Shown: positions 36,256 through 42,044 of the stretch, one piece after another
How the letters are laid out: every line of letters begins with the position of its first letter
Position numbering within the stretch: the first letter of the stretch is position 1
From: an uncultured delta proteobacterium
Lineage (GTDB): Bacteria; Myxococcota; Myxococcia; Myxococcales; Myxococcaceae
Length of the DNA stretch: 64,000 bases
Reading direction: 5' to 3'
Assembly: GCA_963771175.1 (NCBI GenBank)
Contig: CAVYSY010000048.1
Location: 1-64,000 of the forward strand
The notes under the pieces: generated by a model
The model's database searches: none
Told to the model about the DNA's origin: nothing
What the model saw: only the letters and a program-made list of their open reading frames with translations
Program-made: the position numbers and the translations under genes

Positions 36256-36672
36256 ATGAGTCCGAGCCTCGACGTCCGTAACCTGCAACACTCGGTGGAG
36301 CTGTCCGCTCCGCCCGAGGCAGTCTACGCCGCGTTGATGGACGCGCGGCAGCACGCCTCCTTCACGGGCTTGGATGCGGAGATCGACGCACGCGAGGGCG
36401 GCGCCTTCGTCACCTGCGGGGGGCGCAACAGCGGCTACACGCTGGTGCTCGTGCCCGGGCGCCGCATCGTGCAGGCGTGGACGCACCGGGACTGGCCCGA
36501 GCACCACTACTCCATCGTCACCTTCGACCTGGTGCCACTGGGACGCGGCACGCGACTCACCTTCACCCAGATGGGAGTGCCGGCGGAGGCCCATGACTGG
36601 CTCGACGAGGGCTGGCGCACCACCTACTGGGGACCCCTGGCGCGCTTCCTCGTCCTGCGTCGCCGCGGGTGA
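36256..36672 (+). CDS. SRPBCC / AHSA1-like domain protein
   Basis: APPEAVYAALMD, G.RIVQAW, GTRLTFTQ, GW...YW. Confidence 0.85.
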   Translation: MSPSLDVRNLQHSVELSAPPEAVYAALMDARQHASFTGLDAEIDAREGGAFVTCGGRNSGYTLVLVPGRRIVQAWTHRDWPEHHYSIVTFDLVPLGRGTRLTFTQMGVPAEAHDWLDEGWRTTYWGPLARFLVLRRRG

Positions 36673-36703
36673 CGCACCGAGGTCCCACCGAGCTCTCGAC
36701 GTC

Positions 36704-37096
36704 TCAAAGCGGAGGCGGGCTCTTCGCGGAGCGCTTCTTCAGAGCGATGGCGGAGGCGAGTGCCGCCAGGGTGCGAAGAGCGCTGGGAGAGAGCGAGGGC
36801 AGGATGCTCGCGAGGCGGCGCAGTTCTGGAGGATCGATCGGCTCGGCTGGGGTGGTTGGGACCGAGACCTCCTCGGAGCCGAGCCCCAGGAGCACATTGG
36901 CGGAGATGCTCAACGCCACGCAGAGCCGGTGCAGGGAGGGCACGCTGGGCAGCATGTGCCCGCGCTCGATGCGGCCATAGACGGCGGAGGCGAGACCCAC
37001 CATGGAAGCTACATCGGCCTGGGTGAGCCCCGCCCGCTCTCGGGCCCCCAGGAGCGCGGTTCCGATGGTGCGCTTCAGCTTGTGCGTTTCATCCAT
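36704..37096 (-). CDS. XRE-family helix-turn-helix regulator
   Basis: ARERAGLTQADVA..VGL...VYGRIERG.MLPSV..L..LC..L; C-terminal PPELRRL. Confidence 0.88.
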   Translation of the reverse strand: MDETHKLKRTIGTALLGARERAGLTQADVASMVGLASAVYGRIERGHMLPSVPSLHRLCVALSISANVLLGLGSEEVSVPTTPAEPIDPPELRRLASILPSLSPSALRTLAALASAIALKKRSAKSPPPL

Positions 37097-37147
37097 GCTT
37101 GGGCGACACTACCTCGAAAAGCGCATCGCGAGAACCAACTCCGGGGG

Positions 37148-37166
37148 TTGATACTGGATATTCCAG
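37148..37166. promoter_or_regulatory. Candidate operator palindrome in the divergent XRE/DUF2381 promoter region
   Basis: CTGGA-TAT-TCCAG (37154-37166) directly after TTGATA. Confidence 0.35.
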
Positions 37167-37289
37167 GTGGCTCGCGCGCGTCCCGCTGTTCATCCCTCGA
37201 CCCGCGAGGAGAGCACCGCGCCCCGCCGCGGAGGGAATCCGGCACGATGGCGGGCTCCGCGCTTCCCTGGATTCCGGAGACCTCGCCAC

Positions 37290-37964
37290 ATGCGCCCCCT
37301 CCCGCGAGGAGTCCTGCTCCCCCTGACCTGCCTCTGGGGAATGACCGCCATGGCCCATCCCACGGCGCCCGGAGCGGTCGGAGTCTTCTGCCTAGAGTCG
37401 GAGCTCTCGGAGCACGAACCAAAGGTGGGAGCAGGCCCGGAGCCGCCGAGGGGGGAACTGGCACAGCTCCAGGAGGAGAACCAGCGGCTGCGGGCGGAGC
37501 TCGAGCGGCGAAGCGCGGAGCCGGAGCCGGAGCCGGTCAGCCTCACCCGGCTGCGCAGCGGGGAGCTGATGGACGCGACCGGCGTGGAGGCCCGGGACAT
37601 CGCCGCGGAAATCAGGCTCACCCAGGGGGCGATGCTGTCCGTGATGCAGGCCGACAGCTACCGCGCCCGGGGGCGGGTAGCGGTGGAGCTGGTGCTGCTC
37701 AATGAGGGCTCAGCCGAAACCTGGGCGGGGGACAAGGCGGTGCTGGTGGGGGCGCACGGAGAGGAGCTGGAAATCCTCTCGGTCTGGACGACGGGACCCC
37801 TTGCCCCGGGCGGCAAGGGTCGGGTGCTGGTGGAGGCGGTGGGAGAGCCGTCCCCCAGCACGTACACCCTCCGGGTGTGGCAGGGAGATGGCGCTCGCGC
37901 CCTCATCGTCGAGAATGTGACGTTCCCCGACCCCCTCTCTCCCCTCCCAGGAGGAAGACCATGA
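37290..37964 (+). CDS. DUF2381 (TIGR02268) family protein, short form
   Basis: Signal peptide; coiled coil LQEENQRLRAEL; SYRA.GRVAV.L.L.N...W; L.PG..GRVLVE; YTLR.W; VTFP C-terminus. ATGA overlap with the kinase gene. Confidence 0.75.
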   Translation: MRPLPRGVLLPLTCLWGMTAMAHPTAPGAVGVFCLESELSEHEPKVGAGPEPPRGELAQLQEENQRLRAELERRSAEPEPEPVSLTRLRSGELMDATGVEARDIAAEIRLTQGAMLSVMQADSYRARGRVAVELVLLNEGSAETWAGDKAVLVGAHGEELEILSVWTTGPLAPGGKGRVLVEAVGEPSPSTYTLRVWQGDGARALIVENVTFPDPLSPLPGGRP

Positions 37965-39823
37965 GGAACGCGCCTCCCCCGCTGCCCTCCCTCGGGGATT
38001 GGGTCGGGGAGTACGAAGTGGTGGCGAAGCTGGGCGAGGGCGGCTGCGGCACCGTCTTCAAGGCGCGGCGGGGCACGCGCTTCTACGCCCTGAAGTTCAT
38101 CCGCGGTGTTCGCGGAGGCAAGGACGGGCGGGACGCCTGGGGACGGAGGGAGGCGTCCATCCTACTGAACGTGGAGCACCCCCACGTGGTGCGGCTGGTG
38201 GGCATCGGGTACTGGCCGGACGAGGAGACGGGCTGCTTCTACCTCGTCATGGAGTACGTCGAGGGCCGCACACTGTTCGCGTGGGCGGAAGAGGAGAACC
38301 CCTGCGCGCGCGAGGTGGCGCGCAAGACGCTGGAGGGTGCGCGGGCCCTGGCGGAGGTCCACCACCAGCACGTGGTGCACCGGGACGTGAAGGGCTGCAA
38401 CCTGCTGGTGCGCGAGGCGGACGCTCGGGTGGTGCTGGTGGACTTCGGCGCGGGAGGCTACGAGGGAGCGCCGCGTCTCACCCGCTACGGGCTCGCGCCG
38501 GGGACGGACCTCTACCGCAGCCCCGAGGCGGTGCGCTTCCACCTGGACAACGCCCACGACCCCCACGCCAGCCATCCCTCCCAGCCAGCGGATGACTTGT
38601 ACGCGCTGGGTGTCGTCCTCTACGAGCTGCTGACGGATCAGATGCCCTTCCGCGAAGACCTCCCGGAAGCGCGCATCCACGAGCTGTACGAGGAGATCCT
38701 CCATCGGGTGCCCGAGTCCCCCTCCAACCTCAACCCCCGAGTGCCACGGGCCCTGAGCGACCTCTGCATGCGCCTGCTGGCCAAGCGGCCCGACGCCCGC
38801 TACGCCAGCGCCCAGGAGCTGTGCGGAGTTCTGGAGGCGGCGCTCTCGAAGGCGGACGCGAGCTGGGACGTGCCCCTCTTCGCCTCGCGAGCCACCGCCC
38901 CCGCCCGAGCCGCCAGCCCCGCGGAGGATGACGCGGAGGTGGATGCGGAACAGCAATGGGTGATGGAGCAACCCGGCCAGCGTCGCGGGCGCGGCGAGCG
39001 CCCATCGGGAACACGGGAGCCAGCTCCCACGCCCGCGCGCTGGACCCTCCCGAAGATGATGGCCTGGGGCAGTCTCCTGCTGATGGTGTCGTTGGGGGCA
39101 TGGCTCCTCTCCCGCCCCACGAGTCTCGACCCCGAGCTGGCTTCTCCTTCCGCGTCGCCTCGCCGGGCCGGCCACGAAGTGGCGCCCCCCGCCGGGCTGC
39201 CGGAAGCTGACGGAGGCGCAGCGCCCCCCGTGGCGGCCATCCCTGCGCCCGTCGCCTCCGCGACGCCCCAGGAGGAAGACACGCGCGTGAAGAGCCAGAA
39301 GACCTCATCGAAGACCGGACAGAAGGAGTCTGGTTCCGCCGCTGGCTGGCGTGCCCTCACCACCGTCGCCATCTGCACTGCGGCGGCCGGCTGTCCCGCG
39401 GTTCCGGTGCGCCCGCCTCCCGTGGACTGCCCGCCAGAGACCCTCTCCTTCATGCGAGAGAAGCTGGGCATCCGCGTCGGAGACTACGCGAGGGTCGTCA
39501 TCGACAACGACAAGGGTGTTGGCTCCGTTCCCATCGCGGTGCCGGCGGGCGACATCGAGAGCGAGCTGACGGATGACCTGGGAAAGCTGCCGGGCGAGGA
39601 CAAGAGGATATGGCTGTACGGTCAGCTCTTCTTCGGGAAGGACCGGGTCTATGGCCGCTACACCAAGGCCCAACTGGAGGATTTCACCTTTGTCCCGGTG
39701 TGCCTGCAACTGCATGACCGGAAGGATGGCACCCTGGGAGTACCCAAGCAGCCGGGCTCCGGGCCGGGCGCTGCCCTCATCCTCAACGTAGGCTACGTCA
39801 TGGCGGTCCAACGCTTCGAGTGA
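37961..39823 (+). CDS. Membrane Ser/Thr protein kinase with C-terminal exported domain
   Basis: LGEGGCGTVF, YALK, HRDVKGCN, DFG, GT..YRSPE, DDLYALGV; TM MAWGSLLLMVSLGAWLL; C-terminal GQL..G..RVYGRYT.A...VPVC. Confidence 0.9.
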   Translation: MRNAPPPLPSLGDWVGEYEVVAKLGEGGCGTVFKARRGTRFYALKFIRGVRGGKDGRDAWGRREASILLNVEHPHVVRLVGIGYWPDEETGCFYLVMEYVEGRTLFAWAEEENPCAREVARKTLEGARALAEVHHQHVVHRDVKGCNLLVREADARVVLVDFGAGGYEGAPRLTRYGLAPGTDLYRSPEAVRFHLDNAHDPHASHPSQPADDLYALGVVLYELLTDQMPFREDLPEARIHELYEEILHRVPESPSNLNPRVPRALSDLCMRLLAKRPDARYASAQELCGVLEAALSKADASWDVPLFASRATAPARAASPAEDDAEVDAEQQWVMEQPGQRRGRGERPSGTREPAPTPARWTLPKMMAWGSLLLMVSLGAWLLSRPTSLDPELASPSASPRRAGHEVAPPAGLPEADGGAAPPVAAIPAPVASATPQEEDTRVKSQKTSSKTGQKESGSAAGWRALTTVAICTAAAGCPAVPVRPPPVDCPPETLSFMREKLGIRVGDYARVVIDNDKGVGSVPIAVPAGDIESELTDDLGKLPGEDKRIWLYGQLFFGKDRVYGRYTKAQLEDFTFVPVCLQLHDRKDGTLGVPKQPGSGPGAALILNVGYVMAVQRFE

Positions 39824-40045
39824 GGTGCCCCCAGGTGGAGCGGCCCTCGCTCGGACCGGACGCCCACCAGGGAACCACCCCGTCGAGATGCCTGGAGAGG
39901 CCTGACAGGAGCTTGATGCACCCGGGGCGGATGAGTACCCATCAGGTCGTGGGCAGCTCATGGACTCCAGGCGTCTTCTCACCAGGAGGTGCCCGCACTC
40001 CGCCACCGCACGGCCTCGTCCGTGCCTCCGCCCGGGAGCACCTCC

Positions 40046-41122
40046 ATGTCCGGCGACGACACGACCCCCGACAACCCCCGCCATCTCTTCACACGGGAGG
40101 GCACGCGCTACGAGCAACTGCGTGTGCTGACGTCCGAGCGGAACGAGCTGCTCGCGCGACGCCGCTTCCAGGACGGACCGAGCGGCCTCGTCCGCATCAA
40201 GCGACTGGTGGCCCCGTTCGACCCCAAGGTGCGCCAGCGCATGCTCGACGAGGTCCGGCTCTCCCTGCGCCTGCACCACCCGGGCATCGCCTCGGTGTAC
40301 CTGCTCACGATGCACGCGGGGGCGCCACATGTGGTGATGGAGTACGTGGAGGGCTTCTACCTGGAGACGCTCTCGAGCCTCGCGGCCGTGCGCGACCGGC
40401 CCTTCTCCCCCGCCTTCGCCCTGTATGTCGGCGCCGAGGTGGCCGATGCCCTCCACCACGCGCACACCCTCACCGACGATGCGGGCCAGCCACTCAGCAT
40501 CGTCCACCGGGGCGTCAACCCCCAGCACATCCGCGTGGGGCACGGGGGCGAGGTGAAGCTCACGGACTTCGGGGTGGCCTGGTCACGGCTGGTGCACCGG
40601 CAGCGCACGTCGCCCTGGAGGCTGCGCGGGGACCTCGCCTACGCCGCCCCCGAGTACACGCGTGCCGAGGCCGTGGATGCCCGCGCCGACATCTTCTCGC
40701 TGGGGCTGGTGCTGGTGGAGCTACTGACGCACCGCCACCCGCTGGACAGCGAGGAGATGGACGCCCACGCGCCAGAGGACCCGGCGCGGGTGCTCGGGGA
40801 GTGGGTGGAACACGTGCGGAGCGAGGAGCCGTCCTGGCTGCCGGTCCCGATGATGGTGGAGCGACTCCAGCGCCTGGGTCCCGAGCACGTGGAGTGGGCG
40901 GTGCACGGGCTGCCGGAGCCCCTCCGGGTGCTGTTGCACAAGGCCTTGCGGAGCGACCCCTCCGAGCGCTTCCAGACGGCGGCCGAGCTGCGCGACGCCC
41001 TCCGGCGGCAGCTCGCCCAGGGGGGCCCCTACGGCCGCGAGGAGGCCGCCGAGGAAATCCGCCGGGCCACCGAGGAGGCCTCGCACCTGACCGAGAAGGC
41101 CGACGTCCTCGAGCCGATGTGA
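40046..41122 (+). CDS. Ser/Thr kinase-fold protein, probable pseudokinase
   Basis: LHHPGIA.V, VVMEYVEG, LTDFG, YAAPE, ADIFSLG, DPSERF are present, but the catalytic loop reads HRGVNPQH and there is no Gly-rich loop. Confidence 0.85.
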   Translation: MSGDDTTPDNPRHLFTREGTRYEQLRVLTSERNELLARRRFQDGPSGLVRIKRLVAPFDPKVRQRMLDEVRLSLRLHHPGIASVYLLTMHAGAPHVVMEYVEGFYLETLSSLAAVRDRPFSPAFALYVGAEVADALHHAHTLTDDAGQPLSIVHRGVNPQHIRVGHGGEVKLTDFGVAWSRLVHRQRTSPWRLRGDLAYAAPEYTRAEAVDARADIFSLGLVLVELLTHRHPLDSEEMDAHAPEDPARVLGEWVEHVRSEEPSWLPVPMMVERLQRLGPEHVEWAVHGLPEPLRVLLHKALRSDPSERFQTAAELRDALRRQLAQGGPYGREEAAEEIRRATEEASHLTEKADVLEPM

Positions 41123-41147
41123 CTGGGTCGCGCGGCTCGGGAAGAGC

Positions 41148-42044
41148 TCACTCCCCGGCTCGCCGGCAAAGCCAGAGGCGGCCGGACACCTCCTCGATGC
41201 ATCGCTGGCCCGGGTCACAGACCTCTCCCGCGTCCGGCCCGCATTCCCGCTGGCATCCACCCAGGTAGCAGACGGAATCCTTGGGGCAGGACCACTTTCC
41301 CCTCCCACAGGGAATCACGCACTCCACCCGCGCGGTCCAGGCCTCCTCTAACTTGGCCGTGTAGTCGATGGGGTTGCAGGAAAGACCTTCGGGACACGGG
41401 TCGCGCAGGCAGTTGGGGCCGCGAATGACCATGCATTGGGCACGGTCGGTGCCCGCCCCCACGCAATCCTGCCCCTCGGGACAATCTCCCCCCTTGCAGA
41501 AGGGCTGGCAGAAGGAAGTCTCCGGGCCCGCCCGGCACACGAACCCGGCGGGACAGGTCGAAGGCCCGTCCAACTGGCAGGGCCGGCCACAATAGCCCTC
41601 GCCGCACAGCAGCCCTCGCTCACAGGCCTCCTTCAGGAATGTCGTCGTCTCCAAGCAGGGCTGCCCCTCCTTGCGCTCGCCCACGAGGACACACCGTCGC
41701 ACCAGGGGACCATTCTCTCGCAATTGCCGGGTCCGGCAGGTGAAGCCCTCCTTGCATTGCAAGTCCGTCATACACGAACTATCAACACAAACTCTTTCGC
41801 CATCCGACCATAAATCCAGACATGCGAGCGGCGGCGCACAATCCTTCTGGTCCTCGCAAGAACGCCCGTAGGTCAGGAGCGCGCGTCTTTCCTCTCGATT
41901 GAGGATTGGCACAACATTCGTCCCCGGCGGACTCAAGCCCAGGATTGTCCGGTGCTGTTGCAGTCTGGCCGCACAGTGGTCGAACATGAAAGGCAGGGGG
42001 AGTAACAGTCCCACGATGACCCCCAGCACCGTGCGCTTCTTCAT
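41148..42044 (-). CDS. Cysteine-rich exported protein
   Basis: N-terminal hydrophobic helix followed by more than 30 Cys in repeated C..C....C units; lower GC than flanks. Confidence 0.7.
   Translation of the reverse strand: MKKRTVLGVIVGLLLPLPFMFDHCAARLQQHRTILGLSPPGTNVVPILNREERRALLTYGRSCEDQKDCAPPLACLDLWSDGERVCVDSSCMTDLQCKEGFTCRTRQLRENGPLVRRCVLVGERKEGQPCLETTTFLKEACERGLLCGEGYCGRPCQLDGPSTCPAGFVCRAGPETSFCQPFCKGGDCPEGQDCVGAGTDRAQCMVIRGPNCLRDPCPEGLSCNPIDYTAKLEEAWTARVECVIPCGRGKWSCPKDSVCYLGGCQRECGPDAGEVCDPGQRCIEEVSGRLWLCRRAGE

Follow-up and report, generated by a model that had tools for sequence, protein, structure and literature searches.

A conserved start codon inside a myxobacterial receptor kinase gene and its possible lipoprotein product

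In-frame internal starts are a source of shorter cytoplasmic proteoforms, ClpB-80 and IF2-beta among them. In CheA-S, SctQ-C/SpaO-S and Spa33-S, a single open reading frame (ORF) likewise gives two products with a common C terminus, the shorter one from a Shine-Dalgarno (SD) sequence and start codon inside the coding sequence, and co-assembly of the short with the long form is frequent, as in SctQ. Here we describe a similar arrangement in a receptor kinase gene of an uncultured member of the Myxococcaceae, situated in a GC-rich window of 64,000 nucleotides (nt) (positions 1 to 64,000 of contig CAVYSY010000048.1, assembly GCA_963771175.1). It differs from the CheA- and SctQ-type proteoforms in that translation from the internal start would place a type II signal peptide at the N terminus, and the short product would in consequence reach another compartment and carry a lipid anchor. 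The CheA and SpaO/Spa33 proteoforms are covered in a review whose accessible part treats differences in proteoform localization and describes no nested lipoprotein (PMC13515050). In the openly accessible literature we found no described case of an internal start that uncovers a signal peptide and thereby sends the short form out of the cytoplasm for lipidation, the long form remaining in the inner membrane.

A lipoprotein gene nested in the gene of an inner-membrane protein is known from the Rz/Rz1 spanins of phage lambda, whose products together span the envelope. The kinase locus resembles this pair in that the candidate lipoprotein gene is enclosed by a gene whose product sits in the inner membrane and extends a domain into the periplasm. 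The two differ in reading frame: Rz1 uses the +1 frame and has no sequence in common with Rz, and the product nested in the kinase gene keeps the kinase frame and repeats the C-terminal end of the long product exactly. A third comparison is with VirB10 of type IV secretion systems (T4SS), which consists of a cytoplasmic N terminus, one transmembrane (TM) helix, a Pro-rich region and a barrel. The long form of the kinase has the same layout, with the kinase as its cytoplasmic part. In contrast to the T4SS core, in which a separate VirB7 carries the lipid anchor, the barrel would bear the anchor itself.

At the level of gene order, the locus is like clusters of Myxococcus xanthus that contain genes for a DUF2381 protein, a Ser/Thr protein kinase (STPK) and a second kinase-like protein, with a helix-turn-helix (HTH)-Xre gene nearby (PMC3986340; bioRxiv 10.64898/2026.08.28.747804). 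The STPK, second kinase-like, HTH-Xre and related upstream genes of such clusters are differentially expressed in phase variation, according to the part of that paper available, and this connection makes their function genetically testable. Clusters of STPK and DUF2381 genes are mentioned in the accessible text of the second source, a 2026 preprint. The accessible parts of these two sources mention no internal start, lipobox or VirB9/VirB10 likeness, and no such description was found in the openly accessible literature, without supplements, on DUF2381/TIGR02268/PF09544, on MXAN genes, on internal initiation with lipoproteins and on VirB9/VirB10 with Myxococcus.

The internal start codon and its conservation

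The kinase ORF (ATG at 37961, stop at 39821-39823) encodes a Hanks-type Ser/Thr protein kinase, as judged by a match to Pkinase PF00069 over amino acids (aa) 18-286 (E 6.2e-38). Past aa 286 no Pfam family was found, and NCBIfam agrees. TM helix 1 is followed by a Pro/Ala-rich linker and then by AGGAGG, GTG, MKSQKTSSKTGQKESGSAAGWRA, LTTVAICTAAAG, a Cys and 142 more residues. Translation from the GTG gives a product of 178 aa. The features of the ORF are the following.

37961..39823, + strand: kinase ORF, 620 aa, with Ser/Thr kinase, TM helix, Pro/Ala linker, signal-peptide-like segment and barrel domain
39056..39112, + strand: TM helix 1, aa 366-384, MMAWGSLLLMVSLGAWLLS, the best 19-aa hydropathy window (mean Kyte-Doolittle hydropathy 1.65)
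39164..39270, + strand: linker stretch with conserved synonymous sites, including GAA-GTG-GCG (GTG at 39179-39181)
39270..39275, + strand: SD sequence AGGAGG; the core conserved in the family is AGGA at 39273-39276
39287..39289, + strand: in-frame internal start codon GTG, 11 nt after AGGAGG
39287..39391, + strand: putative lipoprotein signal peptide, 35 aa, with Lys-rich n-region, h-region and A-A-G before the Cys
39392..39820, + strand: mature domain from the lipobox Cys, 143 aa, a beta-barrel like the VirB10 C-terminal domain

An earlier note on this DNA had proposed that the one ORF yields both a kinase and a free lipoprotein, and its positions for the SD, the GTG and the Cys were all correct when the sequence was read again. 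It had suggested an alignment of homologous kinases at the DNA level, in which random Val codons and a missing SD or Cys would speak against the proposal. The opposite was found, as the start codon, the SD core and the Cys are all conserved, and this comparative evidence supports two products from one ORF.

Matches to the linker and domain were found in 57 of 151 genomes and 11 of 51 genera of the same taxonomic family, about 595 matches altogether. Among the matches listed, nearly all are in open frames of 540-980 aa and are kinase fusions, and the pattern spans hundreds of paralogous kinase genes. The last 250 codons of 114 fusion genes were aligned. These comprise the window gene, four paralogues from the same genome, 29 best-per-genome loci and 80 of 120 further listed matches, the 80 being taken in list order with the omission of short-frame or contig-end rows, two rows of the source genome already included, and the last rows. 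The sample of 114 was drawn from the listed matches, 445 of the approximately 595 being unlisted.

In the column of GTG 39287, the 114 genes have GTG 72 times, ATG 13, TTG 11, GAG 9 and TCG 3, and the remaining rows have CTC (2), ATC (2), ACG (1) and CTG (1). All four rows with CTC or ATC have an ATG one codon earlier, giving a start codon at the site in 100/114 genes. Every Val at the site is encoded by GTG (72/72), a codon that makes up 65.9% of the Val codons in those genes; GTC, GTT and GTA do not occur there and account for 34% of Val in the same genes. Leu is encoded by TTG in 11/12 cases and by CTG in 1/12, compared with gene-wide shares of 10.6% for TTG and 52% for CTG. At other conserved Val columns of the same alignment, GTG is mixed with GTC, GTT and GTA. 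A set of 61 representatives (≤60% identity) gives a similar distribution, with 43 GTG, 10 ATG (three of them adjacent), 3 TTG and 5 others.

The history of the site was followed on a tree for which only the columns of the barrel were used. It requires at least 19 codon changes at the start site: 14 exchange one start codon for another and so replace V, M or L by another of the three, five end in a codon that is not a start codon, and no synonymous change of Val is among them. In all 14 rows that lack a start codon at the site, an in-frame ATG is present 5-8 codons upstream, ahead of the Lys-rich stretch. Across the 114 fusions, the position is thus conserved as a start codon and not as an amino acid, which is the pattern expected of internal initiation.

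An SD core (AGGA, GGAG or GAGG, 5-18 nt upstream) precedes 88/100 of these sites, compared with 1149/5816 (19.8%) of the control in-frame start codons in those genes. The duplex with the anti-SD sequence reaches ≤-4 kcal/mol at 83% of sites and at 42% of controls. The gap from AGGA to the start is 10 nt at 56 sites and 7 nt at 25. The earlier note had expressed reservations about a long SD spacing; the 11 nt in the window gene are confirmed, and the reservation is weakened by the 10 or 7 nt seen in the family. In alignment column -5, K, E and Q alternate, yet xAG is kept in 101/114 rows, which indicates a constraint on the nucleotides and not on the protein. In column -4, GAx or GGx is kept.

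The SD of the internal start is part of a 13-mer, CCAGGAGGAAGAC, which has only two exact copies in the 64 kb, at 37947-37959 and 39268-39280. The other copy precedes the kinase's own start.

37947..37959, + strand: ribosome-binding 13-mer CCAGGAGGAAGAC, 1 nt before the ATG of the kinase ORF, in the end of the upstream gene

The two copies are in different reading frames of overlapping coding sequences. Shuffled sequences contain on average 0.16 matches to the 13-mer at ≤1 mismatch, and 2/100 shuffles reach two matches.

The mRNA around the site is predicted to be open. The GC content of the 15 nt after the start is 0.535, compared with 0.70 for ORFs, and the 60-nt folding energy is -11.8 kcal/mol at the site and -21.9 kcal/mol in windows elsewhere in these genes. 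The share of control windows from the same gene that fold as weakly has a median of 1.7%. The Lys codons add to the weak folding, so that the openness depends in part on the signal peptide. Both features of an initiation site, an SD at a working distance and an open mRNA, are therefore present.

The putative signal peptide and the barrel domain

Residues 1-23 of the product from GTG 39287 have a net charge of +4, with two K/R in the first seven residues. This charged n-region counts as N-terminal only if translation begins at the GTG. It is followed by a hydrophobic stretch of 12 aa, ALTTVAICTAAA, with a mean Kyte-Doolittle hydropathy of 1.83, and by the lipobox Cys, codon TGT at 39392-39394, which is residue 36. 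The Lys-rich stretch, the short hydrophobic stretch, the AAGC and the domain of about 140 aa described in the earlier note were all found, the domain measuring 143 aa. The sequence TVAICTAAAGC matches a relaxed lipoprotein pattern of the PROSITE PS51257 type with Ala instead of Leu at position -3. That pattern expects the Cys at 15-35, and position 36 falls outside by one residue. The non-canonical lipobox had been noted as a weakness; the Ala at -3 bears this out, and the weakness is reduced by the family, in which AAGC is one of the two commonest lipoboxes (AAGC 11, LTGC 11).

The segment is kept throughout the family. All 114 fusions have [GAS]-Cys, and in the 111 rows that were scored the n-region has a net charge of +1 to +9, positive in every case, and the 12 aa before the Cys have a mean hydropathy of 1.64. 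Residue +2 in these 111 rows is Pro in 62, Ala in 17, Thr in 16 and another residue in 16, and Lys is absent. In M. xanthus, Lys at +2 is a reported signal for retention in the inner membrane, according to the accessible part of the source (PMC3222651).

The stand-alone relatives of the domain also bear on the nature of the segment. With the 178-aa product as query, 20 matches were found in the source assembly (9.8 Mb, 58 contigs, 82% complete). Nine stand-alone paralogues were examined; they are approximately 162 aa long from the first ATG, in open frames of 166-220 aa, and their barrels are 29-39% identical to the domain in the window. All nine open with an ordinary lipoprotein signal peptide of 16-28 aa, whose Cys aligns with Cys36. 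The stand-alone lipoproteins linked to DUF2381 in this genome have the same barrel, Cys position and DUF2381 neighbour as the kinase, without the kinase domain, TM helix or linker. Four other matches (L003, L004, L006 and L015) are kinase tails of the same layout as in the window. The genome also holds paralogous kinase-barrel genes with frameshifts or stops (L002, L013, L014, L016/L019), which are either decaying copies or errors of the draft assembly.

In all 114 rows one reading frame runs from the TM helix through the linker into the barrel; together with the long open frames, this argues that the full-length form is also under selection. Identity of the barrel averages 38% among 55 non-redundant rows. 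A word-indexed search with the 178-aa product gave four matches only, all of them kinase fragments on short contigs. Among the matches, no clean natural split, with a stop between linker and barrel, was found. The short open frames considered as split genes were rejected, since L131 and L132 are contig ends, L002, L013, L014 and L016/L019 are frameshifted, and L133 is kinase-less. L133, from another genome of the same genus, consists of the linker from the GQEVAPP motif onward, an intact lipobox and the barrel. Neither a kinase nor a TM helix is encoded in the 2.3 kb upstream of it, and a stop codon precedes it; an orphan cassette and a remnant are both conceivable.

An AlphaFold2 model of the barrel, computed from an alignment of 71 domains, has a mean predicted local distance difference test score (pLDDT) of 94.1 and a predicted template modelling score (pTM) of 0.88. 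The top Foldseek matches of the model are VirB10 homologues (E 3.6e-4). With VIA-align, the closest structures are likewise VirB10 homologues: 6gyb_c (Z 9.7, root mean square deviation (rmsd) 2.9 over 106 residues), 3jqo_A (9.3), 7okn_A (9.0), 6odi_b (8.7), 7o3j_A (8.2), 2bhv_A (6.3) and 8cb2 (5.6). The rmsd to VirB10 homologues is about 3 Å over some 106 residues, and the next unrelated fold has a Z of 3.8. In the model, the domain is folded like the VirB10 C-terminal barrel, and the resemblance is one of fold. Membership in VirB10/TrbI by sequence profile was not found: neither the 178-aa product nor the tail of the full protein matched a Pfam or NCBIfam family at E≤1, and two stand-alone paralogues matched none either. 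The barrel is also smaller than its counterparts, with approximately 140 aa compared with 190-200 in the matched VirB10 chains, and the model has a single short helix.

The h-region was also considered as a second TM helix that would place the barrel in the cytoplasm, because a 19-aa window at aa 465 exceeds a Kyte-Doolittle value of 1.5. This was set aside for three reasons: positive charges precede the segment, two Cys of the barrel are invariant, and the paralogues that stand alone are lipoproteins and exported.

Two products from one gene, and the alternatives

The reading that we favour, with a probability of about 0.6, is that the kinase ORF holds a second in-frame cistron, so that one gene would produce both the kinase and a free, lipid-anchored barrel. 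From the established sequence features and their conservation we infer translation from the internal start, lipidation and sorting. Ribosomes starting at ATG 37961 would make the 620-aa inner-membrane kinase, with the kinase domain in the cytoplasm, one TM helix, a Pro/Ala-rich linker in the periplasm and the VirB10-like barrel at the C terminus. Other ribosomes would be directed to GTG 39287 by AGGAGG/AGGA, which lies 10-11 nt before it in a weakly folded, GC-poor stretch, and would make a prolipoprotein of 178 aa. The N terminus of this short form would be a normal type II signal peptide, and export by Sec, lipidation on Cys36 and cleavage by signal peptidase II would follow. With Pro and not Lys at +2, the short form would be sent to the outer membrane. 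The same barrel would then occur in two forms, one tethered to the inner-membrane kinase and one lipid-anchored on its own. If this is true, annotation overlooks a whole class of myxobacterial lipoproteins.

Several observations weigh against this reading. The 114 rows represent the higher-scoring part of the approximately 595 matches, and no public RNA runs were found for the source organism; one sequencing run of another kind contains the stretch. The naive probabilities of the codon bias, 9e-14 and 2e-10, are too strong because the rows are related paralogues and orthologues; the pattern of substitutions is the stronger argument. The SD is of moderate strength, with a mean duplex energy of -4.9 kcal/mol and a share at ≤-6 kcal/mol that is not above the controls, and in the 14 exceptional rows the upstream ATG lacks an SD. 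The n-region is also long, with the Cys at a median position of 37 (range 21-60) in the family, compared with about 20 in the stand-alone paralogues. Furthermore, the linker is under a nucleotide-level constraint of its own. The stretch 39164-39270, covering approximately 105 nt before the SD, is the only part of the aligned ORF that was flagged for strongly conserved synonymous sites, and at a second column within it, that of GTG 39179, the codons are also start-like (GTG 82, ATG 10, TTG 10, GTA 8, CTG 1). The only SD-like bases stand directly against this codon, which leaves no usable spacing, and it is not followed by a signal peptide. Some NTG constraint in the linker region could therefore imitate the conservation of a start codon, and for this reason our estimate is not higher than 0.6.

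In the linker stretch, the share of the commonest codon among 55 non-redundant fusions is 0.74-0.85, compared with 0.37-0.51 expected; examples are GAA (103/105), GCG (107/108) and GTC (73/86). The block 39239-39256 within it encodes (T/I)PAPVA. RNAalifold gave no consensus structure for the linker (-0.35 kcal/mol), a scan of 36600-41300 found no sigma-70 promoter or terminator, and inspection by eye of the linker for sigma-54 or ECF-type spacing and for a C-box-like heptamer revealed nothing convincing. Three roles are conceivable for the stretch: control of the nested cistron, a pause signal downstream of the TM helix, or a handle for recombination.

The conserved synonymous sites across 39164-39270 and the second NTG column, with its similar pattern in the absence of an SD or signal peptide, are what would be expected if NTG and AGGA formed a nucleic-acid element in the linker. 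Such an element could be a handle for recombination or gene conversion, a protein-binding site, an internal promoter or a translational pause, and the signal-like segment would then either have a structural role or be left over from an old gene fusion and decay slowly. This agrees with L133, in which linker and barrel occur without a kinase and homology begins near the GAA-GTG-GCG motif, with the weak correlation of pairwise identities between kinase and barrel (Spearman 0.23), and with gene conversion among such clusters, which has been proposed in the accessible part of PMC3986340. We nevertheless regard this explanation as rather unlikely. A plain NTG motif should admit CTG, which makes up 52% of Leu codons and only one of the 12 Leu codons at the site. 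A segment that is useless in the full-length protein is not expected to keep its Cys, charge and hydropathy while its length drifts, and a relic would not retain the Cys, h-region and positive charge in 114/114 rows with an n-region that varies from 21 to 60 aa. The lack of a consensus RNA structure and of a sigma-70-like promoter also speaks against it, and an internal promoter would complement internal initiation and not replace it.

The conservation of the Cys, the h-region and the positive stretch in 114/114 rows, with a continuous ORF in all of them, would also fit a second possibility, which the earlier note had offered as its alternative. Only the full-length protein would be translated, and the internal lipobox would be used after translation: the tail would be lipidated, with or without a cut by signal peptidase II, and the barrel released or anchored. 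This is less likely than internal initiation, and we consider it quite improbable. Processing of the finished protein needs neither a start codon nor an SD, leaving the conservation of both unexplained. In addition, with TM helix 1 oriented N-in, C-out, an h-region downstream of it would approach the membrane the wrong way round for the lipoprotein enzymes, judging from the usual topology of type II signal peptides. We know of no precedent for lipobox processing some 110 residues after a signal-anchor helix, a point at which no search was aimed.

Chance would mean that a Glu-Glu codon pair happens to look like an SD, that the GTG is one of many, and that a GC-rich gene happens to encode a mildly hydrophobic run of Ala and Thr, all without function. 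It has in its favour that GAG-GAA pairs and GTG (5.8% of codons) are common in the genome and that an SD core lies near 19.8% of in-frame start codons, but it is extremely improbable given that the arrangement recurs in 100/114 homologues, and in shifted form in the other 14, and that the homologous segment is the signal peptide of stand-alone paralogues.

The DUF2381 partner and neighbouring genes

The nested cistron would have its place in a small gene cluster, whose other members are as follows.

36704..37096, - strand: divergent HTH (Xre-type) regulator gene beside the cluster (Pfam HTH_3, E 2.9e-9)
37290..37964, + strand: DUF2381-like gene for a secreted protein, upstream of the kinase (Pfam PF09544, E 1.7e-13)
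40046..41122, + strand: second, shorter kinase-like gene, downstream (Pfam Pkinase, E 2.2e-24)

The stop codon of the DUF2381-like ORF overlaps the ATG of the kinase (ATGA). Its match to DUF2381 (PF09544 / TIGR02268) scores 51 bits, compared with a cut-off of 29.2, and covers profile positions 133-287 only, the C-terminal half. The N-terminal part of the protein consists of a signal-like segment and then a charged, coiled-coil-like stretch. The linkage of the two families is established beyond the window. In the source genome, a DUF2381 gene is situated just upstream of eight stand-alone lipoprotein genes (L005, L007-L012, L017), and near kinase fusions it lies either upstream (window, C3, C28) or downstream (C33, C32, C39, C31, C30, C26). 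The neighbours seen for barrel genes are DUF2381 genes, kinase genes and an HTH gene, and no search for other T4SS genes was made.

A full-length DUF2381 paralogue from contig 11 of the source genome (L008:508-1422) was modelled as two beta-sandwich domains with a long helix between them (pLDDT 81). The top matches of the model are the VirB9 homologues TraK, DotH, TrwF and X. citri VirB9, with Foldseek E of 1.6e-9 to 1.2e-5 and VIA Z of 10.6 and 9.9. The overall rmsd is high because of a different angle between the domains, and generic sandwich folds reach Z≤8.8. According to these models, the DUF2381 family is a VirB9-like two-domain protein. The fold results offer a first structural handle on DUF2381 and on the kinase tails, both uncharacterised, and suggest that a type IV secretion core scaffold has been reused for signalling.

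Both forms of the barrel and the adjacent secreted DUF2381 protein would probably form a trans-envelope sensing module. By analogy with the T4SS core and with the long and short pairs of the SctQ type, we infer that free and tethered barrels and DUF2381 may contact one another in a single envelope-spanning assembly that reports to the kinase. A prediction of the complex between DUF2381 (residues 27-305) and a stand-alone barrel gave a score of 0.00, which, as controls were not run, is evidence neither way. A wider proposal, which we put forward tentatively, is that of a large myxobacterial family of receptor Ser/Thr kinases built on the type IV secretion core scaffold, in which each gene would have two products. 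Free outer-membrane barrels would co-assemble with kinase-tethered barrels and DUF2381, the ratio of the two starts would set the stoichiometry, and the linker nucleotides would serve as the control region.

Beyond the second kinase-like gene, positions 41148-42044 on the - strand encode a Cys-rich, secreted-looking protein of 298 aa without a Pfam family. Among named organisms, Archangium provides the nearest homologues of the DUF2381 gene next to the kinase.

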